Of a stretch of 64,000 bases of DNA, positions 5,843-54,418 are shown one piece after another; within the stretch, counting starts at the first letter, position 1; every line of letters begins with the position of its first letter. The notes below the pieces were generated by a model. That model did no database searches, was not told where the DNA came from, and saw nothing but the letters and a program-made list of their open reading frames with translations. Location of the stretch: assembly GCF_044647545.1 (NCBI RefSeq), contig NZ_CP172818.1. One strand, written 5' to 3'. The translations under genes and the position numbers were made by a program. The DNA is from Escherichia coli (lineage in GTDB: Bacteria; Pseudomonadota; Gammaproteobacteria; Enterobacterales; Enterobacteriaceae).

Positions 5843-6535
5843 ATGATGACTAAAATAAAGTTATTGATGCTCATTATATTTTATTTAATCATTTCGGTCA
5901 GCGCCCATGCTGCCGGAGGGATCGCATTAGGTGCCACGCGTATTATTTATCCCGCTGATGCTAAACAGACTGCGGTATGGATTAGAAATAGCCATACCAA
6001 TGAGCGCTTTCTGGTCAATTCGTGGATTGAAAACAGCAGCGGTGTAAAAGAAAAGTCATTCATCATTACACCGCCACTGTTTGTTAGTGAACCCAAAAGC
6101 GAAAATACTTTGCGTATTATTTACACCGGTCCACCGCTGGCGGCAGATCGTGAGTCTCTGTTCTGGATGAATGTTAAGACGATCCCTTCGGTAGATAAAA
6201 ATGCATTGAACGGCAGGAATGTTTTGCAACTGGCGATTTTATCACGCATGAAATTATTTCTCCGTCCAATTCAATTACAAGAATTACCCGCAGAAGCGCC
6301 GGACACACTCAAGTTTTCGCGATCCGGTAACTATATCAATGTTCATAATCCATCACCTTTTTATGTCACCCTGGTTAACTTGCAAGTGGGCAGCCAAAAA
6401 CTGGGGAATGCTATGGCTGCACCCAGAGTTAATTCACAAATTCCCTTACCCTCAGGAGTGCAGGGAAAGCTGAAATTTCAGACCGTTAATGATTATGGTT
6501 CAGTAACCCCGGTCAGAGAAGTGAACTTAAACTAA
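5843..6535 (+). CDS. sfmC: periplasmic fimbrial chaperone SfmC (PapD-like)
   Basis: 230-aa ORF with signal peptide; chaperone-usher operon context. Confidence 0.88.
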
Positions 6536-6565
6536 CCGAATCATCTGACAATATCAGAGCTAATT

Positions 6566-9175
6566 ATGAAAATACCCACTACTACGGATATTCCGCAGAG
6601 GTATACCTGGTGTCTGGCCGGAATTTGTTATTCATCTCTTGCCATTTTACCCTCCTTTTTAAGCTATGCGGAAAGTTATTTCAACCCGGCATTTTTATTA
6701 GAGAATGGCACATCCGTTGCTGATTTATCGCACTTTGAGAGAGGTAATCATCAACCTGCGGGCGTGTATCGGGTGGATCTCTGGCGTAATGATGAGTTCA
6801 TTGGTTCACAGGATATCGTATTTGAATCGACGACAGTAAATACAGGTGATAAATCAGGTGGGTTAATGCCTTGTTTTAACCAGGCACTCCTTGAACGAAT
6901 TGGCCTTAATAGCAGTGCATTCCCCGAGTTAGCCCAGCAGCAAAATAATAAATGCATCAATTTACTGAAAGCTGTACCTGATGCCACAATTAACTTTGAT
7001 TTTGCAGCGATGCGCCTGAACATCACTATTCCTCAGATAGCGTTGTTGAGTAGCGCTCACGGTTATATTCCGCCTGAAGAGTGGGATGAAGGTATTCCTG
7101 CTTTACTCCTGAATTATAATTTCACCGGTAACAGAGGTAATGGTAACGATAGCTATTTTTTTAGTGAACTCAGCGGGATTAATATTGGCCCGTGGCGTTT
7201 ACGCAACAATGGTTCCTGGAATTATTTTCGCGGAAATGGATATCATTCAGAACAGTGGAATAATATTGGCACCTGGGTACAGCGCGCCATTATTCCGCTG
7301 AAAAGTGAACTGGTAATGGGAGACGGTAATACAGGGAGTGATATTTTCGATGGCGTTGGATTTCGAGGTGTACGGCTTTATTCTTCCGATAATATGTATC
7401 CTGATAGCCAGCAGGGATTTGCTCCAACGGTACGTGGGATTGCCCGTACGGCGGCCCAGCTAACGATTCGGCAAAATGGTTTTATTATCTATCAAAGCTA
7501 TGTTTCCCCCGGCGCTTTTGAAATTACAGATTTGCACCCGACATCTTCAAATGGCGATCTGGACGTCACCATCGACGAGCGTGATGGTAATCAGCAGAAT
7601 TACACGATTCCGTATTCAACAGTGCCAATTTTACAACGCGAAGGGCGTTTCAAATTTGACCTGACGGCGGGCGATTTTCGTAGCGGTAATAGTCAGCAAT
7701 CGTCGCCTTTCTTTTTTCAGGGCACGGCACTCGGCGGTTTACCACAGGAATTTACTGCCTACGGCGGGACGCAATTATCTGCAAATTACACCGCCTTTTT
7801 GTTAGGGCTGGGGCGCAACCTCGGGAACTGGGGCGCAGTGTCGCTGGATGTAACGCATGCGCGCAGTCAGTTAGCCGACGACAGTCGTCATGAGGGGGAT
7901 TCCATTCGCTTCCTCTATGCGAAATCAATGAACACTTTCGGCACCAATTTTCAGTTAATGGGTTACCGCTATTCGACACAAGGTTTTTATACTCTTGATG
8001 ATGTTGCGTATCGTCGAATGGAGGGGTACGAATATGATTACGATTATGACGGTGAGCATCGCGATGAACCGATAATCGTGAATTACCACAATTTACGCTT
8101 TAGTCGTAAAGACCGTTTGCAGTTAAATATTTCACAATCACTTAATGACTTTGGCTCGCTTTATATTTCTGGTACCCATCAAAAATACTGGAATACTTCG
8201 GATTCAGATACCTGGTATCAGGTGGGGTATACCAGCAGCTGGGTTGGCATCAGTTATTCACTCTCATTTTCGTGGAATGAATCTGTAGGGATCCCCGATA
8301 ACGAACGTATTGTCGGACTTAATGTTTCAGTGCCTTTCAATGTTCTGACCAAACGTCGCTACACCCGGGAAAATGCGCTCGACCGCGCTTATGCCTCCTT
8401 TAACGCCAACCGTAACAGCAACGGGCAAAATAGCTGGCTGGCAGGCGTTGGTGGGACCTTACTGGAAGGCCACAACCTGAGTTATCACGTAAGCCAGGGC
8501 GATACCTCGAATAATGGGTATACGGGCAGCGCCACGGCAAACTGGCAGGCCGCTTACGGTACGCTGGGGGTCGGGTATAACTACGACCGCGATCAACATG
8601 ACGTTAACTGGCAGCTGTCTGGCGGTGTGGTCGGGCATGAAAATGGTATAACGCTGAGCCAGCCTTTAGGGGATACCAATGTTTTGATTAAAGCGCCAGG
8701 CGCAGGCGGTGTACGCATTGAAAATCAAACTGGAATTTTAACCGACTGGCGCGGCTATGCGGTGATGCCGTATGCCACGGTTTATCGGTATAACCGTATC
8801 GCGCTTGATACCAATACGATGGGGAATTCCATCGATGTTGAAAAAAATATTAGCAGCGTTGTGCCGACGCAAGGCGCGTTGGTTCGTGCCAATTTTGATA
8901 CCCGCATAGGCGTGCGGGCGCTCATTACCGTTACCCAGGGCGGAAAACCGGTGCCGTTTGGATCACTGGTACGGGAAAACAGTACCGGAATAACCAGTAT
9001 GGTGGGTGATGACGGGCAAGTTTATTTAAGCGGTGCGCCATTGTCTGGTGAATTACTGGTTCAGTGGGGAGACGGCGCGAACTCACGCTGCATAGCGCAC
9101 TATGTATTGCCGAAGCAAAGCTTACAGCAAGCCGTCACTGTTATTTCGGCAGTTTGCACACATCCTGGCTCATAA
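6566..9175 (+). CDS. sfmD: outer-membrane fimbrial usher SfmD
   Basis: 869-aa ORF; usher family size and operon position. Confidence 0.9.
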
Positions 9176-11597: not shown

Positions 11598-11674
11598 GCG
11601 CCCTTAGCTCAGTTGGATAGAGCAACGACCTTCTAAGTCGTGGGCCGCAGGTTCGAATCCTGCAGGGCGCGCCA
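11598..11674 (+). tRNA. argU: tRNA-Arg (anticodon UCU), ending in CCA
   Basis: 77-nt sequence GCGCCCTTAGCTCAGTTGGATAGAGCAACGACCTTCTAAGTCGTGGGCCGCAGGTTCGAATCCTGCAGGGCGCGCCA; cloverleaf-compatible; recognised argU. Confidence 0.95.
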
Positions 11675-15778: not shown

Positions 15779-17305
15779 ATGAAAAAAGCCATAGCATATA
15801 TGCGATTTTCATCACCAGGTCAGATGTCTGGCGACTCATTAAACCGACAGAGAAGACTTATTGCTGAATGGTTAAAGGTAAATAGTGATTATTATCTTGA
15901 TACCATAACATATGAAGATTTAGGATTAAGTGCATTCAAAGGAAAGCATGCACAATCAGGAGCTTTTTCGGAATTTTTAGATGCTATAGAGCATGGTTAT
16001 ATATTGCCAGGAACTACATTGTTAGTTGAAAGTCTGGACAGACTTTCAAGAGAAAAAGTCGGTGAAGCGATTGAACGTCTGAAATTGATTTTGAATCACG
16101 GTATTGATGTTATAACTCTTTGCGACAATACAGTCTATAATATTGACTCTTTGAATGAGCCATATTCATTAATAAAAGCCATACTTATAGCACAAAGGGC
16201 AAATGAAGAAAGCGAGATAAAGTCAAGTCGGGTTAAATTATCATGGAAGAAAAAACGGCAGGATGCACTGGAATCAGGTACGATTATGACGGCGTCTTGT
16301 CCGAGATGGCTCTCCTTAGATGACAAAAGAACGGCTTTTGTTCCAGACCCCGACAGGGTGAAAACTATTGAGCTAATTTTTAAACTCAGGATGGAAAGGC
16401 GCTCATTGAATGCAATAGCCAAGTATTTAAATGATCATGCTGTAAAGAATTTCTCAGGAAAAGAAAGTGCATGGGGACCTTCTGTAATTGAAAAATTATT
16501 AGCGAATAAAGCTCTGATAGGTATATGCGTACCTTCATATCGTGCAAGAGGTAAAGGAATAAGTGAAATCGCTGGCTATTATCCCAGAGTCATATCAGAT
16601 GATTTGTTTTACGCTGTACAGGAAATTCGGTTGGCACCTTTTGGTATTAGCAATAGTAGCAAAAATCCTATGTTGATAAATCTACTTCGAACAGTTATGA
16701 AGTGCGAGGCTTGTGGTAATACCATGATTGTTCATGCGGTATCTGGAAGTTTGCATGGCTATTATGTTTGTCCGATGAGAAGACTGCATCGATGTGACAG
16801 GCCATCAATAAAGAGAGATTTGGTTGATTATAATATCATTAATGAGTTGCTTTTTAATTGTAGTAAAATCCAACCAGTTGAAAACAAGAAAGATGCTAAT
16901 GAAACTTTAGAGTTGAAAATTATTGAGCTCCAGATGAAAATTAATAATTTAATTGCTGCATTATCTGTTGCGCCTGAAGTTACCGCTATAGCAGAAAAAA
17001 TCAGAGTATTAGATAAGGAATTACGAAGGGCTTCTGTATCATTAAAAACTTTGAAGAGTAAAGCGGTGAGTTCACTTGGTGATTTTCATGCTATTGACTT
17101 AACCAGTAAAAATGGGCGAGAGCTATGTCGTACACTTGCCTATAAAACATTCGAAAAAATCATAATCAATACAGATAATAAAACCTGTGATATCTATTTT
17201 ATGAATGGCATTGTTTTTAAACACTATCCTTTAATGAAAACAATATCCGCCCAGCAGGCGATAAGTACTCTCAAATATATGGTTGATGGTGAGGTTTATT
17301 TTTGA
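15779..17305 (+). CDS. ybcK: large serine recombinase family protein
   Basis: 508-aa ORF; N-terminal resolvase-like catalytic motif (AYMRFSSPGQ), central recombinase domain, Cys-rich zinc ribbon (CEACGN...CPMRRLHRCD), C-terminal coiled-coil-like region. Confidence 0.85.
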   Translation: MKKAIAYMRFSSPGQMSGDSLNRQRRLIAEWLKVNSDYYLDTITYEDLGLSAFKGKHAQSGAFSEFLDAIEHGYILPGTTLLVESLDRLSREKVGEAIERLKLILNHGIDVITLCDNTVYNIDSLNEPYSLIKAILIAQRANEESEIKSSRVKLSWKKKRQDALESGTIMTASCPRWLSLDDKRTAFVPDPDRVKTIELIFKLRMERRSLNAIAKYLNDHAVKNFSGKESAWGPSVIEKLLANKALIGICVPSYRARGKGISEIAGYYPRVISDDLFYAVQEIRLAPFGISNSSKNPMLINLLRTVMKCEACGNTMIVHAVSGSLHGYYVCPMRRLHRCDRPSIKRDLVDYNIINELLFNCSKIQPVENKKDANETLELKIIELQMKINNLIAALSVAPEVTAIAEKIRVLDKELRRASVSLKTLKSKAVSSLGDFHAIDLTSKNGRELCRTLAYKTFEKIIINTDNKTCDIYFMNGIVFKHYPLMKTISAQQAISTLKYMVDGEVYF

Positions 17306-17499
17306 GTAATAATCTTTTTTACGTCGTGCTATAGTAAGAAAGTGCAAGACAGAATTAATTATCTTTGACGAAACTTAATGGGTAATTACTTTGTTTGCTC
17401 CCACAAGCGAGTTTTGTACGGCTGTATTGGGGTAGTAAATGAGCTATACAATCTTAATCATTTGTTAGGTGAGAACTCTTGGTCGCAGATTCAAATACT

Positions 17500-17549: not shown

Positions 17550-17762
17550 TGAATGGTAGGTTAAAAAATAACACCGACTTTCGTAGGTATTACTAATAAT
17601 AAAGCAGAGTTTTTAGATAGTATCAATGTGCTTTGTGTATATTGTGGCAAATAATTGGGTTGCTGAGGGGTAGAATGTGATTGCTTTTGCATGAACACTT
17701 TATGCATAATGAGATAAAGGAATATCAAATAAAGAACGATAGGTCATAACAAAGAGGTTTTT

Positions 17763-18312
17763 ATGAAAACACTTATCGTTTCAACTGTATTGGCATTCAT
17801 AACATTTTCTGCGCAGGCTGCAGCATTTCAGGTCACTAGTAATGAAATAAAAACAGGAGAGCAACTTACAACGTCTCATGTCTTTCTCGATTTGGGTGTG
17901 AAGGTGGTAATACATCGCCCTCATTAACCTGGTCTGGTGTTCCTGAAGGTACCAAAAGCTTTGCCGTAACTGTATATGATCCAGATGCACCTACAGGCAG
18001 TGGTTGGTGGCATTGGACTGTTGTTAATATTCCAGCAACAGTAACATATTTTCCGTTGATGCAGGGAGACGTGATGGAACAAAACTGCCGACTGGTGCTG
18101 TTCAAGGCCGAAATGATTTTGGCTATGCTGGGTTTGGTGGCGCATGTCCTCCTAAAGGAGATAAACCACATCATTACCAGTTTAAAGTATGGGCTCTAAA
18201 AACTGAAAAGATTCCTGTAGATTCTAACTCCAGCGGAGCGTTAGTTGGTTATATGCTTAATGCTAATAAAATCGCAACCGCTGAGATAACACCAGTTTAT
18301 GAGATAAAGTAG
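17763..18312 (+). pseudogene. ybcL: periplasmic PEBP/UPF0098 family protein with two frame breaks in this assembly
   Basis: Signal peptide MKTLIVSTVLAFITFSAQA; the protein is recovered across three frames with shifts near 17884 (T-run) and 18054 (C-run); corrected length would be 183 aa. Confidence 0.7.
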
Positions 18313-20823: not shown

Positions 20824-21207
20824 ATGCGTGATATTCAGATGGTTCTTGAGCGTTGGGGAGCGTGGGCGGCTAATAATCATGAAGATGTGACCTGGTCGTC
20901 CATTGCCGCCGGTTTTAAGGGATTAATTACTTCAAAAGTAAAATCTCGCCCACAATGTTGTGACGATGACGCGATGATCATTTGCGGGTGCATGGCCCGT
21001 CTGAAAAAGAACAACAGCGATTTGCATGATTTATTGGTGGACTATTATGTCGGCGGCATGACTTTTATGGCGCTTGCACGTAAGCATGGGCGATCTGATT
21101 GTTGGGTTGGCAGGATGCTTCAGAAAGCTGAGGGCGTAGTGGAGGGTATGCTGATGGTGTTGGATCTCCGATTGGAGATGGATGTCGTTGTTAATAACTC
21201 TAATTAA
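20824..21207 (+). CDS. quuD: Q-family late-gene antiterminator
   Basis: 127 aa from [18 protein letters not shown]; immediately upstream of a hairpin-rich regulatory region. Confidence 0.8.
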
Positions 21208-22653: not shown

Positions 22654-23683
22654 TTAGTGAAGTCATTTTTGTCAAGCAGGTTGATTTTGTAATCAACGAA
22701 AGTAGACATATTTTTGTTGAAGTAATAGGTTGCACCTACATCAACATATTTGACTAAGTCCTGATCGCCCCATACTCCAAGATCCTTACCTTTAGATTGC
22801 AGGTAAGCAACGGACGGACGCAGACCGAAATCGAACTGATATTGTGCAACAGCTTCGAAGTTTTGGGCTTTATTAGCAACGAAGTGATCAGCAAATACAG
22901 TCATATTCTGGGTTTCAGAATAGGTAGTGGCCAGGTAAATGTTGTTAGCGTCATATTTCAGACCTGCGGCCCAAACTTCTGCATTTTTACCGGAAGCAAA
23001 TACTTCAGGAAGAACTTTCCCTGCATTAACTTGAGTGTCGGTACGATCAGATTTCGCATAAGTTGCACCGATACCGAATCCTTCGTATTCATAGGTAGCA
23101 GAGAAACCGAAGCCATCACCGTTACCTTCAGTGTAGTTATCGAAATCGCTACGATCGTTTTTGCCTTGGTACTGAATCGCAAAATCAAGACCATCAACCA
23201 GGCCAAGAAATCATAGTTACGGTAGGTTGCAACACCGTTGGTACGACCATTCATGAAGTTGTCAGCGGAAGCCCAGGAATCGCCACCCCATTCAACTAAC
23301 ATATCGGTATAAGCTGCGGCATCATAAGCAACACCGTAGTTACGGCCATAGTCAAATGACCACTCGTTATATTTCAAACCGGCGAAGGTTAAACGGGTTT
23401 TTTCCTGGTTTTCACCTTCGGGCTTGCTGGCGTCGAGGTTGTATTCAAACTGACCAAAACCAGTCAGTTCGCTGGTGATTTGGGTTTCACCTTTGAAGCC
23501 AAGACGGGCATAAGTAGTATCACCATCATCTGCATCATTAGAGGAGAAGTAGTGCTTAGCATTAACTTTCCCGTACAGATCCAGCTTGTTACTGTCTTTA
23601 TTATAAATTTCAGCTGCCTGAGCAGACATCGCCATTAGTACTGATGCAGCTACAGCAGAAATTGCCACTGTTAATTTTTTCAT
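22654..23683 (-). pseudogene. nmpC: OmpC-family outer-membrane porin, truncated at the 3' end by IS5 and carrying an internal single-base frame break near 23205
   Basis: Signal peptide [23 protein letters not shown]; porin sequence reads YRNYDF then shifts frame, then continues in frame to the IS5 junction (last residues EGANKSLI come from IS5). Confidence 0.8.
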
Positions 23684-24258: not shown

Positions 24259-24474
24259 ATGAAATCCATGGATAAGTTAACAACGGGCATTGCCTACGGC
24301 ACCTCCGCAGGCAGTGCTGGCTACTGGTTTTTACAGCTGCTCGATAAAGTCACGCCCTCACAGTGGGCAGCAATAGGTGTGCTGGGTAGCTTGGTATTTG
24401 GCCTGCTGACGTACCTGACAAACCTTTATTTCAAGATTAAAGAAGATAAGCGCAAGGCTGCGAGAGGTGAATAA
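24259..24474 (+). CDS. essD: phage holin (71 aa)
   Basis: Two hydrophobic segments and charged C-terminus; first gene of the lysis cassette. Confidence 0.85.
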
Positions 24475-24971
24475 TGCCTCCATCATTACGAAAAGCCGTT
24501 GCTGCTGCTATTGGTGGCGGAGCAATTGCTATAGCATCAGTGTTAATCACTGGCCCAAGTGGTAACGATGGTCTGGAAGGTGTCAGCTACATACCATACA
24601 AAGATATCGTTGGCGTATGGACTGTATGTCACGGGCATACAGGAAAAGACATCATTCCCGGTAAAACGTATACCGAAGCAGAATGCAAAGCCCTCCTGAA
24701 TAAAGACCTTGCCACGGTAGCCAGACAAATTAACCCGTACATCAAAGTCGATATACCGGAAACAACGCGCGGCGCTCTTTACTCGTTCGTCTATAACGTG
24801 GGCGCAGGCAATTTCAGAACATCTACTCTTCTTCGCAAAATAAACCAGGGCGATATCAAGGGCGCATGTGACCAGCTACGTCGCTGGGCATACGCTGGCG
24901 GTAAGCAATGGAAAGGCCTGATGACTCGTCGTGAGATTGAGCGTGAGGTCTGTTTGTGGGGGCAACAATGA
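24474..24971 (+). CDS. rrrD: phage endolysin (lysozyme family)
   Basis: 165-aa ORF overlapping holin stop; N-terminal signal-anchor-like segment. Confidence 0.85.
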
Positions 24972-25342
24972 GCAGAGTCACCGCGATTATCTCCGCTCTG
25001 GTTATCTGCATCATCGTCTGCCTGTCATGGGCTGTTAATCATTACCGTGATAACGCCATCGCCTACAAAGAACAGCGCGATAAAAAAGTCAGTGAGCTGA
25101 AGCAGGCGACCGCCACCATTACTGACATGCAGCAGCGCCAGCGTGATGCTGATGCACTCGATGCTAAATACACGAAGGAGTTAGCTGATGCGAAAGCTGA
25201 AAATGATGCTCTTCGGCGCAAGCTTGATAATGGTGGTCGGGTGCTCGTCAAAGGAAAATGCCCTGTGCCATCCTCAGCCGAAACCTCCAGCGCCTCCGGC
25301 ATGGGCAATGATGCCACCGTCGAACTCAAAGACCGAGAATAA
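24968..25342 (+). CDS. rzpD: Rz-like inner-membrane spanin subunit (reading frame as it stands in this sequence)
   Basis: N-terminal transmembrane segment [21 protein letters not shown], coiled-coil-like region; frame terminates at 25342 while the following Rz-like C-terminal peptide lies in the +1 frame. Confidence 0.6.
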
Positions 25343-25445
25343 AAACTATCCAGTTAGCGACGAATATCTGGACCCAATTATCGCGACCAAAACAGCACTG
25401 AGAACGCTTCAGGAATTCATCAGGACGCAATGTCCTTCGAGATAG
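25188..25445 (+). CDS. rzoD: Rz1-like outer-membrane lipoprotein spanin subunit, +1 frame inside and extending beyond the Rz frame
   Basis: [12 protein letters not shown] lipobox, proline-rich PKPPAPPAW; true C-terminus uncertain. Confidence 0.45.
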
Positions 25446-25602
25446 CGATTATTTTACTCATCATTCCCTTCACATCTGGCTCTGTAGACAGTTCACTTCT
25501 GAAATCCAATAAACATCTCATTCTGATGCTTGATATTGAGCATTTTGCGCGCGGTAAGGGGCTGCGTTGAGATAAGAACCAGTAAAAATAAACCAGGATT
25601 TA

Positions 25603-25625
25603 GCCTCGCATTCGCGGGGCTTTTT
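25603..25625 (+). terminator. candidate rho-independent terminator of the lysis operon
   Basis: GCCTCGC ATTC GCGGGGC hairpin (7-bp stem with one G-U pair) followed by TTTTT. Confidence 0.5.
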
Positions 25626-25709
25626 ATTGCCATTACAAAAGCCACTTCCTACAGAGTGGCTTTGATAATGGTTTATACCCTACACGGGATAACTTAACTG
25701 ATATCCCTT

Positions 25710-25874
25710 TTAAAGGATAAAGGTATTCAAGCCTGACACATCATGCGCTGTATCGTCGCCGTATTCCCGTATTAACAGAGACCGTAGCCCGACGGGGAAC
25801 TCCTTCTGCGCGAGTGTGCGGGAATAATCAAAAACGATGCACACCGGGGTTACCGGGTACACATATTTCATCAT
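25710..25874 (-). CDS. hypothetical small ORF (54 aa)
   Basis: ORF MMKYVYPVTPVCIVFDYSRTLAQKEFPVGL...; no recognisable family; below ORF-track cutoff. Confidence 0.2.
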   Translation of the reverse strand: MMKYVYPVTPVCIVFDYSRTLAQKEFPVGLRSLLIREYGDDTAHDVSGLNTFIL

Positions 25875-25919
25875 GCCAGCGAGTCCGGTTCTGGCACGGA
25901 AGAAACCGGACGTTATGAT

Positions 25920-26330
25920 TTAGTGCGGAAATATTTGTGTAGTGTTCTGAATGTTCTCAGTAAAGAGTAATGAATTATCAAAGGTATAGTAATACCTTTT
26001 GTTTTCGTGGATATTTGTAATCCATCTGAAAACCCCTGCTGTAGCAAGATTTTTCCTGTATTCGTAAAATGATAACTCTCCTGATTTGAATCCTTTTAAG
26101 GTGGCTTCTATAAGGCATTTATTTTTTGAAAATCTTACATTTACAACCTTACCCTGTCCTTTTATTAAAACCGTATTATCGTTTTCAAGAACAAGATGAA
26201 TATTCTCTGTAGCTAAATAGTAAATGTAATGTGAGACATTGTGACGTTTTAGTTCAGAATAAAACCAGTGATAGTTTAAATTATTTCGCACTTTATCGAA
26301 TATTTGTTTAAAAATGGCAACCTGAGCCAT
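25920..26330 (-). CDS. ybcV: prophage protein YbcV (DUF1398-like)
   Basis: 136 aa from [31 protein letters not shown]. Confidence 0.75.
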
Positions 26331-26662
26331 TGTGGTACCTTCCATGTGATATGAGGGGCGTAGTCTGCACGATTATCTAAATTGCTTCAATCTGGTCTGA
26401 TTTTTGAGAATTTAAATAAGCAGATTAGAAGGGAAACGCTGAAATTCATGTTGTTTTCAATAAACAAAGAATGGACGAAAAATCATAAAGACAATACTGC
26501 CAGGACAGGTTAAAAACTATCTTAATACACATTCGATGGTTAGATGTTTAATCATGTATAGAACATCATACCTAAAATACTAAAAGCAAAAGAAACGAAG
26601 GAATCCTCTATAATTAATCTATCAAAGAAGAGAATACGTATCTGACTAAGAGACTAATCAAC

Positions 26663-26896
26663 TCAGCAATCCTCGTATTTAGGGAATACAATACGTCCAG
26701 TGTCACTCTTTTCTTTGTTTGCTTCAGGAGAAACTCTTTTTTCTGAGCACAGTCTCCGGCGGCAGGCTTCAATGACCCAGGCTGAGAAATTCCCGGACCC
26801 TTTTTGATCAAGAGCGATGTTAATTTGTTCAATCATTTGGTTAGGAAAGCGGATGTTGCGGATTGTTGTTCTGCGGGTTCTGTTCTTCGTTGACAT
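26663..26896 (-). CDS. ylcI: small DNA-binding-like prophage protein (YlcI/DUF3950-like)
   Basis: 77-aa ORF MSTKNRTRRTTIRNIRFPNQMIEQINIALDQKGSGNFSAWVIEACRRRL; start codon uncertain. Confidence 0.5.
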   Translation of the reverse strand: MSTKNRTRRTTIRNIRFPNQMIEQINIALDQKGSGNFSAWVIEACRRRLCSEKRVSPEANKEKSDTGRIVFPKYEDC

Positions 26897-27095
26897 GAGG
26901 TTGTCCCGTATTTAGTGTCGCTGATTTGTATTGTCTGAAGTTGTTTTTACGTTAAGTTGATGCAGATCAATTAATATGATACCTGCGTCATAATTGATTA
27001 TTTGACGTGGTTTGATGGCGTAGATGCACGTTGTGACATGCAGATGATAATTATTATCATTTTGCGGGTCCTTTCCGGCGATCCGACAGGTTACG

Positions 27096-27107
27096 GGGCG
27101 GCGACCT
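27096..27107 (+). other. lambda-type cosN cohesive-end sequence GGGCGGCGACCT
   Basis: Exact lambda cohesive-end 12-mer preceded by GATCCGACAGGTTACG; CGTTTCC/GGAAACG repeats (terminase small-subunit binding elements) lie between it and nohD. Confidence 0.8.
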
Positions 27108-27284
27108 CGCGGGTTTTCGCTATTTATGAAAAATTTCCGGTTTAAGGCGTTTCCGTTCTTCTTCGTCATAACTTAATGTTTTTATTTAAAATACCCTCTG
27201 AAAAGAAAGGAAACGACAGGTGCTGAAAGCGAGCTTTTTGGCCTCTGTCGTTTCCTTTCTCTGTTTTTGTCCGTGGAATGAACA

Positions 27285-27830
27285 ATGGAAGTCAACAAAA
27301 AGCAGCTGGCTGACATTTTCGGTGCGAGTATCCGTACCATTCAGAACTGGCAGGAACAGGGAATGCCCGTTCTGCGAGGCGGTGGCAAGGGTAATGAGGT
27401 GCTTTATGACTCTGCCGCCGTCATAAAATGGTATGCCGAAAGGGATGCTGAAATTGAGAACGAAAAGCTGCGCCGGGAGGTTGAAGAACTGCGGCAGGCC
27501 AGCGAGGCAGATCTCCAGCCAGGAACTATTGAGTACGAACGCCATCGACTTACGCGTGCGCAGGCCGACGCACAGGAACTGAAGAATGCCAGAGACTCCG
27601 CTGAAGTGGTGGAAACCGCATTCTGTACTTTCGTGTTGTCGCGGATCGCAGGTGAAATTGCCAGTATTCTCGACGGGCTCCCCCTGTCGGTGCAGCGGCG
27701 TTTTCCGGAACTGGAAAACCGACATGTTGATTTCCTGAAACGGGATATTATCAAAGCCATGAACAAAGCAGCCGCGCTGGATGAACTGATACCGGGGTTG
27801 CTGAGTGAATATATCGAACAGTCAGGTTAA
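27285..27830 (+). CDS. nohD: terminase small subunit (lambda Nu1 homologue)
   Basis: 181-aa [49 protein letters not shown]...; recognised Nu1 sequence. Confidence 0.9.
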
Positions 27831-28548
27831 CAGGCTGCGGCATTTTGTCCGCGCCGGGCTTCGCTCACTGTTCAGGCCGGAGCCACAGACCGCCGTTGAA
27901 TGGGCGGATGCTAATTACTATCTCCCGAAAGAATCCGCATACCAGGAAGGGCGCTGGGAAACACTGCCCTTTCAGCGGGCCATCATGAATGCGATGGGCA
28001 GCGACTACATCCGTGAGGTGAATGTGGTGAAGTCTGCCCGTGTCGGTTATTCCAAAATGCTGCTGGGTGTTTATGCCTACTTTATAGAGCATAAGCAGCG
28101 CAACACCCTTATTCCAGCTGGCTTCGTGGCTGTTTTCAACAGTGATGAGTCATCGTGGCATCTCGTTGAAGATCATCGGGGTAAAACGGTTTATGACGTA
28201 GCGTCAGGGGACGCGTTATTTATTTCTGAACTCGGTCCGTTACCGGAAAATGTTACCTGGTTATCGCCGGAAGGGGAGTTTCAGAAGTGGAACGGTACAG
28301 CCTGGGTGAAAGATGCAGAAGCAGAAAAACTGTTCCGGATTCGGGAGGCGGAAGAAACAAAAAACAGCCTGATGCAGGTAGCCAGTGAGCATATTGCGCC
28401 ACTTCAGGATGCTGTAGATCTGGAAATCGCAACGGAGGAAGAAACCTCATTGCTGGAAGCCTGGAAAAAATATCGGGTGTTGCTGAACCGTGTTGATACA
28501 TCAACTGCACCTGATATTGAGTGGCCTACGAACCCTGTCAGGGAGTAA
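27805..28548 (+). pseudogene. tfaD: fusion of terminase large-subunit N-terminal fragment to a tail-fibre assembly C-terminal fragment
   Basis: N-terminal ~100 aa match lambda gpA start ([28 protein letters not shown]...), C-terminal part matches Tfa (...[28 protein letters not shown]...). Confidence 0.75.
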
Positions 28549-42048: not shown

Positions 42049-43437
42049 ATGTCTCCTTGTAAACTTCTGCCATTTTGTGTGGCCCTTGCGCTAACCGGTT
42101 GTTCACTGGCACCGGATTATCAGCGTCCGGCAATGCCCGTGCCGCAGCAGTTCTCACTCAGCCAGAACGGCCTGGTTAACGCAGCAGATAACTACCAGAA
42201 CGCGGGCTGGCGCACCTTTTTTGTTGATAATCAGGTGAAGACGCTGATTAGCGAGGCGTTGGTGAATAACCGGGATTTACGCATGGCGGCGCTGAAAGTG
42301 CAGGAGGCACGGGCGCAATATCGTCTGACCGATGCCGACCGCTACCCACAGCTCAATGGCGAGGGCAGCGGCAGCTGGAGCGGTAATCTTAAAGGGAATA
42401 CCGCCACGACACGGGAGTTTTCGACCGGCCTTAACGCCAGCTTTGACCTCGATTTTTTCGGGCGCTTAAAGAACATGAGCGAAGCCGAGCGTCAAAATTA
42501 TTTAGCTACTGAGGAAGCTCAGCGCGCGGTGCATATTCTGCTGGTTTCTAATGTCGCGCAAAGCTATTTCAATCAGCAACTGGCGTATGCGCAAGTGCAA
42601 ATAGCCGAAGAAACGCTGCGTAATTATCAGCAGTCATATGCATTTGTCGAAAAACAACTGTTGACCGGTAGCAGCAATGTTCTGGCGCTAGAACAGGCTC
42701 GCGGGGTGATAGAAAGTACCCGCAGCGACATCGCTAAACGTCAGGGGGAACTGGCGCAGGCGAATAATGCATTGCAACTGTTATTGGGAAGCTACGGCAA
42801 GCTGCCGCAAGCGCAGACAGTAAACAGCGACAGCCTGCAAAGCGTTAAATTACCGGCGGGCTTGTCGTCGCAAATCTTATTGCAGCGCCCTGATATTATG
42901 GAAGCTGAACACGCGTTAATGGCGGCTAATGCCAATATTGGCGCTGCACGCGCGGCATTTTTCCCGTCTATCAGCCTGACCAGCGGAATATCGACCGCCA
43001 GTAGCGATCTGTCGTCATTATTTAACGCCAGCAGCGGGATGTGGAATTTTATACCCAAAATTGAGATCCCCATTTTTAATGCCGGACGCAACCAGGCCAA
43101 TCTGGATATCGCCGAAATTCGCCAGCAGCAGTCGGTGGTGAATTATGAACAGAAAATCCAGAATGCCTTTAAAGAAGTGGCAGATGCGCTGGCATTACGT
43201 CAAAGCCTGAACGATCAAATCAGCGCCCAGCAGCGTTATCTGGCATCGCTGAAAATTACTTTGCAACGGGCGCGGGCATTATATCAGCACGGCGCAGTAA
43301 GTTATCTGGAAGTGCTGGATGCCGAGCGTTCTTTATTTGCAACCCGACAAACTTTACTTGACCTGAATTATGCCCGTCAGGTTAACGAAATTTCTTTATA
43401 TACCGCCTTAGGGGGCGGTTGGCAGCAAAATTTTTAA
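42049..43437 (+). CDS. cusC: outer-membrane efflux lipoprotein CusC
   Basis: 462-aa ORF with lipobox LTGC; OMF family. Confidence 0.9.
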   Translation: MSPCKLLPFCVALALTGCSLAPDYQRPAMPVPQQFSLSQNGLVNAADNYQNAGWRTFFVDNQVKTLISEALVNNRDLRMAALKVQEARAQYRLTDADRYPQLNGEGSGSWSGNLKGNTATTREFSTGLNASFDLDFFGRLKNMSEAERQNYLATEEAQRAVHILLVSNVAQSYFNQQLAYAQVQIAEETLRNYQQSYAFVEKQLLTGSSNVLALEQARGVIESTRSDIAKRQGELAQANNALQLLLGSYGKLPQAQTVNSDSLQSVKLPAGLSSQILLQRPDIMEAEHALMAANANIGAARAAFFPSISLTSGISTASSDLSSLFNASSGMWNFIPKIEIPIFNAGRNQANLDIAEIRQQQSVVNYEQKIQNAFKEVADALALRQSLNDQISAQQRYLASLKITLQRARALYQHGAVSYLEVLDAERSLFATRQTLLDLNYARQVNEISLYTALGGGWQQNF

Positions 43438-45036: not shown

Positions 45037-48000
45037 ATGATTGAATGGATTATTCGTCGCTCGGTGGCGAACCGTTTTCTGGTGCTGATGGGCGCGTTGT
45101 TTCTGAGCATCTGGGGCACCTGGACCATCATTAACACGCCAGTGGATGCGCTGCCGGATCTCTCTGATGTACAGGTGATTATTAAAACCAGCTATCCCGG
45201 TCAGGCACCGCAAATCGTTGAAAATCAGGTGACTTATCCGCTAACCACCACCATGTTGTCGGTACCTGGCGCGAAGACAGTGCGCGGTTTCTCGCAGTTT
45301 GGCGACTCTTATGTGTATGTCATTTTTGAAGATGGCACCGATCCGTACTGGGCGCGCTCGCGGGTGCTGGAGTACCTCAATCAGGTACAGGGGAAGCTGC
45401 CTGCGGGAGTCAGCGCCGAGCTGGGGCCAGACGCCACGGGCGTTGGCTGGATCTATGAATATGCACTGGTAGATCGCAGCGGTAAGCACGATCTGGCCGA
45501 TTTACGCTCATTGCAGGACTGGTTTCTCAAATATGAGCTAAAAACCATCCCTGACGTTGCGGAAGTGGCGTCGGTGGGCGGTGTGGTGAAAGAGTATCAG
45601 GTGGTTATCGATCCTCAGCGCCTGGCGCAGTATGGCATCAGTCTCGCCGAAGTAAAAAGCGCGCTGGATGCTTCAAACCAGGAAGCGGGCGGTTCGTCGA
45701 TCGAACTGGCGGAAGCGGAATATATGGTGCGCGCCAGCGGATATCTGCAAACGCTCGACGACTTTAATCACATCGTTTTAAAAGCCAGTGAAAATGGCGT
45801 GCCCGTTTATCTGCGTGATGTTGCGAAGGTCCAGGTTGGCCCGGAGATGCGCCGGGGCATTACCGAACTGAACGGCGAAGGCGAAGTGGCGGGCGGGGTG
45901 GTGATCCTGCGTTCCGGCAAAAACGCCCGTGAAGTGATCGCTGCCGTGAAGGACAAACTGGAAACGCTGAAAAGCAGTCTGCCGGAAGGCGTGGAGATAG
46001 TTACAACATACGATCGCAGCCAGCTCATTGACCGCGCCATTGACAACCTCAGTGGCAAGTTGCTGGAAGAGTTTATTGTGGTGGCGGTAGTCTGTGCGCT
46101 GTTTCTCTGGCATGTGCGCTCGGCGCTGGTGGCGATTATTTCGTTGCCGCTGGGGTTGTGTATTGCTTTTATTGTCATGCACTTTCAGGGACTGAACGCC
46201 AATATTATGTCGCTGGGCGGTATTGCGATTGCCGTCGGGGCGATGGTCGATGCCGCTATCGTCATGATCGAGAATGCGCATAAACGGCTGGAAGAGTGGC
46301 AGCACCAGCATCCTGACGCCACGCTGGATAATAAAACGCGCTGGCAGGTGATTACCGATGCATCTGTTGAAGTGGGGCCGGCGCTGTTTATCAGTCTGCT
46401 GATTATCACGCTGTCGTTTATCCCGATCTTCACCCTGGAAGGGCAGGAAGGTCGTCTGTTTGGCCCGCTGGCGTTCACCAAAACCTATGCGATGGCGGGC
46501 GCGGCGCTACTGGCGATCGTAGTGATCCCGATCCTGATGGGCTACTGGATCCGTGGCAAAATTCCGCCGGAAAGCAGTAACCCGCTCAATCGCTTTTTGA
46601 TTCGTGTTTATCATCCGCTGTTGCTGAAAGTACTGCACTGGCCGAAAACCACGCTGTTGGTGGCAGCGCTTTCGGTGCTGACGGTACTCTGGCCGCTCAA
46701 TAAAGTTGGCGGGGAATTTTTACCGCAGATCAATGAAGGCGACTTGTTGTATATGCCATCGACGCTGCCGGGGATTTCCGCAGCAGAGGCGGCGAGCATG
46801 CTGCAAAAAACCGACAAGCTGATTATGAGCGTACCGGAAGTGGCGCGGGTATTTGGCAAAACCGGGAAAGCGGAAACCGCCACCGATTCAGCTCCACTGG
46901 AGATGGTAGAAACGACTATCCAGCTTAAGCCACAAGATCAGTGGCGGCCAGGCATGACGATGGACAAAATCATTGAGGAACTGGATAACACCGTGCGTCT
47001 GCCGGGGCTGGCGAATCTGTGGGTGCCGCCAATTCGTAACCGTATCGATATGCTCTCGACTGGCATTAAAAGCCCTATCGGCATTAAAGTTTCCGGCACT
47101 GTGCTGGCGGATATCGACACGATGGCGGAGCAAATTGAAGAAGTGGCGCGAACGGTGCCAGGCGTAGCTTCTGCTCTTGCCGAGCGGCTGGAAGGTGGGC
47201 GCTATATCAACGTTGAGATTAACCGTGAAAAAGCCGCGCGTTACGGTATGACGGTGGCGGATGTGCAATTGTTTGTGAAATCTGCGGTGGGCGGGGCGAT
47301 GGTTGGCGAAACGGTGGAAGGGATTGCCCGTTATCCAATTAATCTGCGTTATCCGCAAAGCTGGCGCGATAGCCCGCAGGCACTGCGCCAGTTGCCGATC
47401 CTCACGCCGATGAAGCAGCAAATCACCCTGGCAGACGTGGCCGACGTTAAAGTCTCTACCGGACCGTCGATGCTGAAAACCGAGAATGCGCGCCCGACGA
47501 GCTGGATTTATATCGATGCCCGCGATCGTGACATGGTGTCGGTGGTTCACGATCTGCAAAAAGCGATAGCTGAAAAAGTGCAGTTAAAACCGGGCACCAG
47601 CGTGGCATTCTCCGGGCAGTTCGAGCTACTGGAGCGCGCCAACCATAAGCTGAAACTGATGGTGCCGATGACGCTGATGATCATCTTCGTGCTGTTGTAC
47701 CTGGCGTTCCGTCGGGTGGGCGAAGCGTTGCTGATTATCAGCAGCGTACCGTTTGCGCTGGTGGGCGGCATCTGGTTGCTGTGGTGGATGGGCTTTCATC
47801 TTTCCGTGGCGACGGGCACCGGTTTTATTGCCCTTGCCGGGGTCGCCGCCGAATTTGGCGTGGTGATGCTGATGTATTTACGTCACGCCATAGAGGCCGA
47901 GCCGTCGTTGAATAATCCGCAAACATTCAGCGAGCAGAAGCTGGATGAGGCGTTGTATCACGGCGCGGTCCTGCGCGTGCGCCCGAAAGCGATGACGGTG

Positions 48001-48180
48001 GCGGTGATTATCGCTGGTCTGCTGCCGATTCTGTGGGGAACGGGAGCAGGTTCAGAGGTGATGAGCCGGATTGCCGCGCCGATGATTGGCGGCATGATCA
48101 CCGCGCCTTTGCTATCGCTGTTTATTATCCCGGCGGCGTATAAGCTGATGTGGCTGCACCGACATCGGGTACGGAAATAA
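45037..48180 (+). CDS. cusA: RND-family copper/silver efflux pump CusA
   Basis: 1047-aa ORF, 12-transmembrane RND architecture. Confidence 0.93.
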
Positions 48181-48281
48181 AAGCAGGATACCCCGTTTAA
48201 CCGTGTGGATTGTGTCTTGCGACGATGGGCACTAAATGTTAAAAGGTGCCCCTCAACAAAAAAGACACACAGGGGAAAGGC

Positions 48282-49658
48282 GTGAAAAACGCGTCAACCG
48301 TATCGGAAGATACTGCGTCGAATCAAGAGCCGACGCTTCATCGCGGATTACATAACCGTCATATTCAACTGATTGCGCTGGGTGGCGCAATTGGTACTGG
48401 TCTGTTTCTTGGCATTGGCCCGGCGATTCAGATGGCGGGTCCGGCTGTATTGCTGGGCTACGGCGTCGCCGGGATCATCGCTTTCCTGATTATGCGCCAG
48501 CTTGGCGAAATGGTGGTTGAGGAGCCGGTATCCGGTTCATTTGCCCACTTTGCCTATAAATACTGGGGACCGTTTGCGGGCTTCCTCTCTGGCTGGAACT
48601 ACTGGGTAATGTTCGTGCTGGTGGGAATGGCAGAGCTGACCGCTGCGGGCATCTATATGCAGTACTGGTTCCCGGATGTTCCAACGTGGATTTGGGCTGC
48701 CGCCTTCTTTATTATCATCAACGCCGTTAACCTGGTGAACGTGCGCTTATATGGCGAAACCGAGTTCTGGTTTGCGCTGATTAAAGTGCTGGCGATCATC
48801 GGTATGATCGGCTTTGGCCTGTGGCTGCTGTTTTCTGGGCACGGCGGCGAGAAAGCCAGTATCGATAACCTCTGGCGCTACGGTGGTTTTTTTGCCACCG
48901 GCTGGAATGGGCTGATTTTGTCGCTGGCGGTGATTATGTTCTCCTTCGGCGGGCTGGAGCTGATTGGGATTACTGCCGCTGAAGCGCGCGCTCCGGAAAA
49001 AAGCATCCCGAAAGCAGTGAATCAGGTGGTGTATCGCATCCTGCTGTTTTATATCGGTTCACTGGTGGTTTTACTGGCACTCTATCCGTGGGTGGAAGTG
49101 AAATCCAACAGTAGCCCGTTTGTGATGATTTTCCATAATCTCGACAGCAACGTGGTAGCCTCTGCGCTGAACTTCGTCATTCTGGTAGCATCATTATCGG
49201 TGTATAACAGCGGGGTTTACTCTAACAGCCGCATGCTGTTTGGCCTTTCTGTGCAGGGTAATGCGCCGAAGTTTTTGACTCGCGTCAGCCGTCGCGGTGT
49301 GCCGATTAACTCGCTGATGCTTTCCGGAGCGATCACTTCGCTGGTGGTGTTAATCAACTATCTGCTGCCGCAAAAAGCGTTTGGTCTGCTGATGGCGCTG
49401 GTGGTAGCAACGCTGCTGTTGAACTGGATTATGATCTGCCTGGCGCATCTTCGTTTTCGTGCTGCGATGCGACGTCAGGGACGTGAAACACAGTTTAAGG
49501 CGCTGCTTTATCCGTTCGGCAACTATCTCTGCATTGCCTTCCTCGGCATGATTTTGCTGCTGATGTGCACGATGGATGATATGCGCTTGTCAGCGATTCT
49601 GCTGCCGGTGTGGATTGTATTCCTGTTTGTAGCATTTAAAACGCTGCGTCGGAAATAA
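48282..49658 (+). CDS. pheP: phenylalanine-specific permease PheP (APC family)
   Basis: 458 aa from an apparent GTG start (VKNASTVSED...); ORF-track N-terminal extension rejected. Confidence 0.85.
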   Translation: MKNASTVSEDTASNQEPTLHRGLHNRHIQLIALGGAIGTGLFLGIGPAIQMAGPAVLLGYGVAGIIAFLIMRQLGEMVVEEPVSGSFAHFAYKYWGPFAGFLSGWNYWVMFVLVGMAELTAAGIYMQYWFPDVPTWIWAAAFFIIINAVNLVNVRLYGETEFWFALIKVLAIIGMIGFGLWLLFSGHGGEKASIDNLWRYGGFFATGWNGLILSLAVIMFSFGGLELIGITAAEARAPEKSIPKAVNQVVYRILLFYIGSLVVLLALYPWVEVKSNSSPFVMIFHNLDSNVVASALNFVILVASLSVYNSGVYSNSRMLFGLSVQGNAPKFLTRVSRRGVPINSLMLSGAITSLVVLINYLLPQKAFGLLMALVVATLLLNWIMICLAHLRFRAAMRRQGRETQFKALLYPFGNYLCIAFLGMILLLMCTMDDMRLSAILLPVWIVFLFVAFKTLRRK

Positions 49659-54297: not shown

Positions 54298-54418
54298 CCG
54301 TTGTGCGGGGAGCAATCCCCGCATATCCGGTTGTCAGGTCAGGATGGTAAGGCACCTGCTTTACACTTTCGCCCGTGGTCAGTGATGGCTGCGGGCGAAT
54401 CGTACCAGATGTTGTCAA

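Follow-up and report, generated by a model that had tools for sequence, protein, structure and literature searches.

A right-arm allele without bor in the DLP12 prophage of an Escherichia coli genome, and a conserved hairpin at the edge of its post-lysis slot

The DLP12 locus

The junction described here lies between the lysis genes and ybcV in a stretch of Escherichia coli DNA of 64,000 nucleotides, the whole of which we refer to as the window. The window is collinear with positions 553133..619041 of E. coli K-12 MG1655 at ~97.6% identity, with naturally spread mismatches and near-identical IS elements. The tRNA-Arg(UCU) gene, argU, is found at 11598..11674 and the cryptic prophage DLP12 lies next to it. 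Its membership of DLP12 follows from the argU-adjacent integration and from a gene order that is that of MG1655, nohD, appY and ompT included. An IS3 element in renD and an IS5 element in nmpC are common to the DLP12 of the window and that of K-12.

Within the prophage, positions 25446..25919 (474 bp) form a convergent gap, in which the rightward lysis cassette (essD, rrrD and Rz/Rz1) faces the leftward ybcV-ylcI unit. The holin gene essD (71 aa; 24259..24474, plus strand) is 100% identical over most bins to the loci annotated as essD in FDAARGOS_497, BS-01 and MS6198, and the ORF of the endolysin gene rrrD (165 aa; 24474..24971, plus strand) is collinear with the annotated rrrD of MG1655 and FDAARGOS_497. 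On the far side of the gap, the ybcV allele (141 aa; 25920..26345, minus strand) encodes a DUF1398 protein, with E-values of 3.3e-43 for Pfam DUF1398 and 1e-89 for PHROG 413. Its DNA is 100% identical to that of FDAARGOS_497, BS-01 and Kati, and 75-94% identical to that of MG1655 and lambda.

Defective spanin genes and divergent patches

The i-spanin gene Rz (24956..25342, plus strand) is truncated: from its GTG start it encodes 128 aa, and intact alleles encode 155. Its Pfam Phage_lysis match (3.6e-20) covers profile positions 1-94 of 126, and its PHROG 13 match covers positions 1-121 of 154. The TAA stop codon stands at 25340..25342; between conserved anchors there are 64 nt in the window and 57 in intact alleles, a shift to the +1 frame. 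The o-spanin gene Rz1, embedded in Rz (25188..25445, plus strand; 85 aa), is recognisable by its lipobox, LIMVVGC, and by a Pfam Rz1 match of 1.4e-12 over residues 19-49, and it is abnormally extended into the frame-shifted C-terminus of Rz: residues 63-82 match PHROG 13 Rz positions 133-152, the C-terminal end of that profile. With Rz cut off after 128 of 155 residues and the C-terminal motif of that protein displaced into the Rz1 frame, the window does not encode an intact two-component spanin.

A small ORF has decayed at the same place. In FDAARGOS_497, MS6198, Ayreon and Kati, an intact ORF of 50 aa (WP_001139678.1, PHROG 11822) is annotated that overlaps the end of Rz. The window retains a remnant of it at 25430..25570 (plus strand), in which both ends are kept and the middle is scrambled by indels, and which matches PHROG 11822 over the C-terminal 16 residues only (3.2e-07).

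Both lesions fall in a patch of concentrated divergence at 25329..25600, where identity is 75-94% with indels and the flanks are 100% identical to other genomes. The patch aligns base for base with the Rz end and the 50-aa ORF of intact alleles, and BS-01 has some of the same indels in the region 25450..25530. Among 5,426 complete E. coli genomes, no donor allele exceeds ~87% identity across the patch, and no Rz in the phage collection is more than 54% identical in amino acids over the part concerned. Uniform neutral decay does not account for such divergence beside flanks that are 100% identical. Two more stretches are strongly diverged or unique between flanks identical to other genomes, at 23150..23500 and 26402..26700, and other low-identity bins likewise cluster in the prophage. 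The stretch at 26402..26700 is a 299-bp insert unique to the window; neither the E. coli genomes nor the compared loci contain a match, and a 25-mer from it is likewise missing from the GTDB representative genomes.

Features of the convergent gap

An intrinsic terminator, T1, was located at 25602..25629 on the plus strand by pattern scan and folding. An earlier note on this DNA had placed a terminator at 25603..25625, and it is real: a stem at 25602..25621 is followed by TTTTTATT. The 8-bp stem has six G-C pairs and a 4-nt loop, and with its T-run the element folds at -15.2 kcal/mol (z=-2.7). T1 is invariant in BS-01, FDAARGOS_497, Kati and Ayreon, and a near-identical terminator is found in other phage loci. 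With a G+C-rich hairpin and a U-tract, T1 is like known intrinsic terminators, and termination here is predicted.

A second hairpin, H1, begins one base after T1. It spans 42 nt (25630..25671, plus strand) and has CCATTA/TAATGG as its outer stem; a 2x2 internal loop separates this from the inner stem of 9-10 bp, in which AAAGCCACT (25638..25646) pairs with AGTGGCTTT (25655..25663). H1 folds with z=-4.3, and T1 and H1 together with z=-6.4. The earlier note had reported an isolated 9-bp inverted repeat at 25637..25664; the repeat exists, at most 1 nt from that position, and it is not isolated, being the inner stem of this conserved hairpin.

Two palindromes of the TATCC/GGATA type, found by regular expression, lie beyond H1: IR-A (TATACCC-N4-GGGATA) at 25674..25691 and IR-B (TATCCC-N6-GGATA) at 25702..25719. 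The conserved 3' flank of ybcV then extends over 25725..25919. It contains, 9 nt past the ybcV stop codon, an inverted repeat, TCCGGTT/AACCGGA (25884..25910, minus strand), that was read from the sequence; in MG1655 and lambda one arm base of this repeat differs and the outer five pairs (CCGGT/ACCGG) are kept.

The same flank holds ORF54, a minus-strand ORF of 54 aa at 25710..25874 that had been described as unrelated to Bor. The ORF is present and matches no Bor profile. It is unlikely to be a gene: neither Pfam nor PHROG contains a match, stop codons interrupt the MG1655 version, and many loci have other sequence in place of its first 23 nt, the 5' part being replaced in PhiR70_1 and Ayreon. 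Substitutions among its homologues number 28, 38 and 16 at codon positions 1, 2 and 3, with no third-position enrichment, and nearly all of them change the amino acid. A scan for sigma-70 promoters gave six sites, not above the 7.1 expected by chance.

Absence of bor

The claim that no frame of the gap, on either strand, encodes a Bor-like protein was borne out by every search. Lambda Bor as the query found nothing better than E=1.1 by tblastn over the whole 64-kb window. MG1655 BorD, run with phmmer --max against all six-frame stop-to-stop segments of the window, gave a best E-value of 0.3, for a short segment at 17733..17924, and no hit in the gap. No bor remnant was found with the rzpD'-borD DNA of MG1655 by blastn at word size 7. 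The ORFs of the gap match neither Pfam PF06291 (Lambda_Bor) nor PHROG 260, profiles that detect MG1655 BorD as a positive control at 1.4e-30 and 4e-58, respectively. No minus-strand lipoprotein ORF of ~97 aa with a signal peptide and a lipobox follows Rz/Rz1; the minus-strand ORFs in 25446..25919, of 33, 50 and 54 aa, all lack a lipobox-type N-terminus.

The reference prophage does carry bor here, in line with the earlier note: in the DLP12 of MG1655, borD (b0557, 97 aa, minus strand) lies between rzpD and ybcV. Bor has been linked to serum resistance in lambda lysogens and is listed among moron-encoded proteins, morons bringing their own promoter and terminator (PMC3594210). Lambda, 21 and 434 differ in their morons (PMC9119081).

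How unusual the absence is was another matter. A Bor homologue was found in 195 of 50,697 phage records, mostly lambda and Stx phages, and an Rz of the window's family in 736 of them. Across the complete E. coli genomes, the bor-less arm occurs in 611 of 5,426, counting genomes with one place that covers at least 80% of window positions 25000..26400, and the K-12-type segment with bor occurs in 915. With counts of 195 vs 736 and 611 vs 915, it is too strong to say that bor 'usually' follows Rz/Rz1 in lambdoid phages. The earlier note was right that bor is missing; that its absence is notable was only partly supported, because this is common mosaic variation. The bor-less state is of an already understood kind, in which modules are exchanged and morons are optional.

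Two right arms of DLP12

The window and K-12 share the overall plan of this region. In both, as in lambda, the site follows the spanin genes and precedes the DUF1398 gene and cos/Nu1 (rzpD-rzoD-borD-ybcV in K-12), the lysis cassette upstream and nohD downstream are the same, and Rz is 87-91% identical over its first ~250 bp. The window differs from lambda and K-12 DLP12 in lacking bor and ybcW, in having another allele of the Rz/Rz1 3' part, in a ybcV that is only 83% identical, and in possessing T1, H1 and the palindromes, which are absent from lambda and MG1655 DLP12.

Blastn breakpoints and a profile of identity per 100 bp delimit a whole-allele difference from MG1655 DLP12 at 25213..26733. 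Homology to MG1655 runs up to 25212, in the middle of Rz, and resumes at 96-99% identity from 26734, at the 3' end of ylcI; in between, only 25744..26400 (ybcV and its 3' flank) aligns, at 83%. The MG1655 counterpart of this interval comprises the rzpD 3' half, the rzoD end, borD, ybcV, ybcW and the ylcI 3' end. The K-12 arm is closely related to lambda: from the Rz start to cos (Rz, Rz1, bor, ybcV, ybcW and cos), it is 98% identical to lambda 45967..48502 over 2,537 bp.

The arm of the window has relatives elsewhere. At 25600..26400 and 26700..28100 it is 100% identical to FDAARGOS_497, BS-01 and MS6198, and 96-100% identical per bin to Kati, which over 25600..26400 is also 100% identical; to MG1655 and lambda, identity is 75-94%, and only where the sequences can be aligned. 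The order Rz, small ORF, terminator, DUF1398 and YlcI is annotated in FDAARGOS_497, MS6198, Kati and Ayreon. BS-01 is annotated as Rz, DUF1398 and YlcI, likewise without bor and with no annotation within the gap. In BS-01 and MS6198, the bor-less arm sits at the DLP12 site itself. Ayreon and mEp460 diverge from this arm ahead of the DUF1398 gene, and mEp460 shares most of the arm length. Kati, Ayreon, mEp460, FDAARGOS_497, MS6198 and BS-01 have the same order of a 155-aa-type Rz, the 50-aa ORF, T1, H1 and the palindromes. Compared with these bor-less relatives, the window has a truncated Rz, an out-of-frame Rz1 fusion, a scrambled 50-aa ORF and the unique 299-bp insert.

By sequence comparison, then, the absence of bor is a difference between alleles of a whole module, from mid-Rz to the 3' end of ylcI, and not a local deletion, because the neighbours of bor differ as alleles too and the same arm occurs in other prophages and phages. 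A simple internal deletion of bor from a K-12-like DLP12 would agree with the K-12-like prophage on either side, which has the same IS3 and IS5 elements and in which many 100-bp bins are identical to MG1655. It is nevertheless improbable: the window retains no trace of bor or of the bor flanks, the Rz 3' half and the Rz1 end cannot be aligned to K-12, ybcV is only 83% identical, ybcW is missing, and the same bor-less arm is intact in viable phages.

An error of assembly or sequencing might be suspected from the diverged or unique patches at 23150..23500, 25329..25600 and 26402..26700, which stand between identical flanks and include many indels relative to the comparators. We give this slightly less credence than a deletion, since several phages and 611 independent complete genomes have the bor-less order, some of the indels at 25450..25530 recur in BS-01, and prophage mosaics typically diverge in patches. 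The least credible alternative by some distance is that the gap hides a Bor homologue that is frame-shifted or has diverged strongly: the degenerate stretch at 25329..25600, where pseudogenes are conceivable, aligns with the Rz end and the 50-aa ORF and not with bor, phmmer --max, tblastn and word-7 blastn were all negative, and outside that stretch the gap shows 100% identity to loci where Bor is neither present nor annotated.

The gap is therefore very probably the convergent intergenic region of a right-arm allele whose accessory slot after the lysis genes is empty. K-12 DLP12 has a lambda-type right arm and the window genome an arm of the Kati/Ayreon/mEp460 type, and we suggest that the two were swapped by homologous recombination between lambdoid phages or prophages, with both crossovers in sequence common to the two arms, one close to 25213 within Rz and the other close to 26734 at the ylcI 3' end. 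The exchange may have run in either direction: K-12 may have gained the lambda-type arm, or the lineage of the window may have lost it. Recombination of the DLP12 late region with lambdoid phages has been described, for example with 434B (PMC9119081).

The anatomy of the junction also suggests how it may work. Most likely, T1 and H1 would terminate or process the rightward transcripts of polymerase without the Q modification, as in a lysogen, and the convergent ybcV-ylcI unit would thereby be insulated; in lytic growth, polymerase carrying the Q modification would read through. Just upstream of the terminator, Rz1, the small ORF and the tail of Rz have degenerated, probably because the prophage is cryptic.

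A variable post-lysis slot

The position between Rz and H1 is occupied differently from phage to phage. PhiR49_1 has a KilA-N gene and an 85-aa ORF there, ev099 a 173-aa ORF, and PhiR70_1 ORFs of 50 aa and 253 aa; in the window, Kati and Ayreon, the slot holds only the 50-aa ORF, decayed in the window copy, and T1. Among the matches listed, the distance from Rz to H1 in viral contigs with the H1 pattern ranges from 39 to 2,993 bp, and none of the 120 contigs has Bor. Unrelated genes are thus present, absent or replaced between conserved neighbours in related phages, and the site behaves as a moron slot that may hold bor, KilA-N, Rha/Ant-like regulators, unknown ORFs or nothing. In the window the slot is empty, and hence there is no moron. 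H1 forms the right edge of this variable post-lysis slot, and where the slot is occupied it comes immediately after the last of the rightward accessory genes.

The conserved hairpin H1

H1 is widespread in phages. The pattern CCATTACAAA-N16-30-TTGATAATGG matches at least 120 IMG/VR contigs, and blastn with H1 found 144 phage records, including HK022, HK620, ES18, ST64T, mEp043 and Stx2 phage 1717. It is absent from the right end of lambda and from MG1655 DLP12. Among the matches listed, the nearest upstream ORF is on the same strand as H1 in 100 of 119 loci, and its stop codon often touches H1. The abutting proteins belong to at least 19 unrelated families, which include spanins, small proteins of unknown function and transcriptional regulators, some of them Rha/Ant-like. 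The genes downstream are heterogeneous among the matches listed; two of them look, by eye, like terminase small subunits.

The inner stem of H1 is maintained as a pairing. Across 25 distinct 38-nt variants among the matches listed, 99.5% of the cells are standard pairs, compared with 25-50% when the partners are slid, and double changes occur at two pairs; because the search pattern prescribed them, neither the two innermost A-U pairs nor the outer stem is informative for covariation. On the plus strand, the variants have 41 G.U cells and one A.C cell, and read on the minus strand the 41 would become mismatches. Covariation in the inner stem and the G.U bias point to a function of the plus strand, as RNA or as single-stranded nucleic acid. 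We accordingly rejected H1 as a minus-strand terminator of ybcV, in which those 41 G.U pairs would turn into C.A mismatches; the minus-strand side of H1 leads into the complement of a stop codon and into coding sequence.

The depositors of Ayreon annotate H1 as a terminator. This assignment is not secure, because no consistent U-tract follows the hairpin: the homologues continue with TTATCCCC, CTTATACC, AAAAACAG, GAAAAGAA or TATGTATT. H1 differs from an intrinsic terminator in its long interrupted stem and in this missing tract; its likeness to hairpins that serve RNA processing or stability is no smaller than its likeness to a terminator. Its interrupted helix of ~20 bp is the right size for RNase III.

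We compared H1 with known RNA families. Rfam returned nothing at the gathering threshold, and no family covers H1, either in the window or in 13 other loci. A match to STnc560 at 25503..25691 is due to chance, reaching 19.6 bits against a threshold of 55 and being driven by the two tandem hairpins; STnc560 proper belongs to the ydeI/ydeE intergenic region of Salmonella and not to a prophage. The anti-sRNAs AgvB and AsxR are not relevant, as the moron site in which they sit follows PR' and the Q antiterminator, not Rz, and neither are the Pas sRNAs, whose preprint makes no mention of lysis, terminase, spanin, DLP12 or ybcV. A full-text literature search with H1 sequence strings matched unrelated primers only.

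The palindromes often accompany H1. In viral loci, 114 of the 153 palindrome motif matches, among the matches listed, lie at most 50 nt downstream of an H1; the pair is also found without H1, after ordinary terminators. IR-A and IR-B share the palindromic core ATCCC...GGGAT with the iterons of the lambda origin (ATCCC-N9-GGGAT, four annotated). Their spacing is ~3 bp shorter, and phage ECP1, which carries the palindrome element, has unrelated TTGTCCAAC repeats as the iterons of its own replication gene. We therefore rejected IR-A and IR-B as lambda-O-type origin iterons, and homology with them is not supported by the sequences. Nor is it supported that the two palindromes form a single 18-bp RNA hairpin as a rule: in 41 variants, central pairing was found in 129 of 246 cells, compared with 118 +/- 5 after permutation. 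Some copies do pair perfectly as a long hairpin, down to -35 kcal/mol, and there is no strand bias across the 41 variants. RNAalifold predicts H1 alone and no IR-A/IR-B hairpin.

We tentatively propose, as a possibility that we ourselves consider rather doubtful, that H1, often with the palindrome pair, is an undescribed cis-acting element of lambdoid and P22-like phages at the junction of the lysis and accessory genes with the packaging genes. Its role could be that of a site of RNA processing or stability, a transcriptional insulator, or a conserved linker that guides the exchange of modules.

Implications

DLP12 is polymorphic for its right arm, and the DLP12 of the window does not provide a prophage-borne Bor lipoprotein. 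For annotation, this means that borD should not be expected in every DLP12, that ORF54 should not be called a gene, that the Rz/Rz1 pair of the window is defective, and that the K-12 arm is essentially that of lambda. H1 and the palindrome pair offer a modest lead, which could help to explain how accessory genes are swapped after the lysis genes and how the boundaries of transcription are set there.

A conserved hairpin downstream of the lysis cassette

The 9-bp inverted repeat reported in the earlier note, which lies in the gap between the lysis cassette and the leftward gene ybcV, makes up the inner stem of H1, a hairpin of 42 nt at window 25630..25671. H1 is conserved: 144 phage records, among them those of HK022, HK620, ES18 and ST64T, contain it, as do at least 120 viral contigs. 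Many rightward genes that are unrelated to one another have H1 immediately 3' of their stop codon. The hairpin shows covariation, with a strong G.U bias to the plus strand; it is without a U-tract and has no entry in Rfam.

Downstream of H1, we find two TATCC/GGATA palindromes (window 25674..25719). Many phages have the same pair, with the consensus TTATCCCC-N4-6-GGGGATAA occurring twice, after H1 or after an ordinary terminator; in some of these phages it forms a perfect 48-nt palindrome. A likeness of these palindromes to the iterons of the lambda origin was considered and is not supported.

Spanin genes

The spanin pair Rz/Rz1 at window 24956..25445 is defective. Following a net change of +7 nt, Rz is cut short to 128 aa (155 aa in intact alleles), and the Rz1 frame now holds the C-terminal motif of Rz, giving an Rz1 ORF of 85 aa. 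Window 25329..25600 has 75-94% identity to every comparator, plus indels, and is flanked on both sides by sequence that is 100% identical to many genomes. Neither the 5,426 E. coli genomes nor the phage collection contains an allele closer to this patch.

The ybcV-ylcI region

An inverted repeat, TCCGGTT/AACCGGA, lies on the minus strand at window 25884..25910, 9 nt 3' of the ybcV stop codon, and may be a 3'-end structure of the ybcV transcript. It is kept in MG1655 and lambda, which differ from the window at one arm base. Between ybcV and ylcI, the window carries a 299-bp insert of 31% G+C (26402..26700), whereas the comparators have about 23 bp at this site; ybcW, which is found near this site in K-12, is missing from the window. 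No match to the insert was found in the complete E. coli genomes or the fetched loci, and a 25-mer from it has none among the GTDB representative genomes.

Comparison with MG1655

Outside these regions, IS186B (MG1655 608007..609351) is missing at window 54308..54319, where its flanks are joined directly, and about 130 bp of the cusC-cusF interval (MG1655 596980..597108) is missing at window 43428..43432.

Within the prophage, a stretch of nmpC on the minus strand (window 23100..23500) has only 66-73% identity to MG1655, strain BS-01 and phage Kati, with 18 gap positions, in contrast to 100% identity in the adjacent bins. In the window, nmpC has no ORF longer than 261 aa, and the IS5 insertion adjoining the stretch is identical to the K-12 copy. 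Further prophage bins of low identity to MG1655 (75-89%) lie at window 17000..17400 and 21000..21200, so the DLP12 of the window is a patchwork relative to that of K-12.

The right arm of K-12 DLP12 (positions 6109..8645 of the fetched locus L002, equivalent to MG1655 578108..580644), which runs from rzpD and rzoD through borD, ybcV and ybcW to cos, is, across 2,537 bp, 98% identical to lambda 45967..48502, and this effectively makes the reference borD the bor module of lambda.
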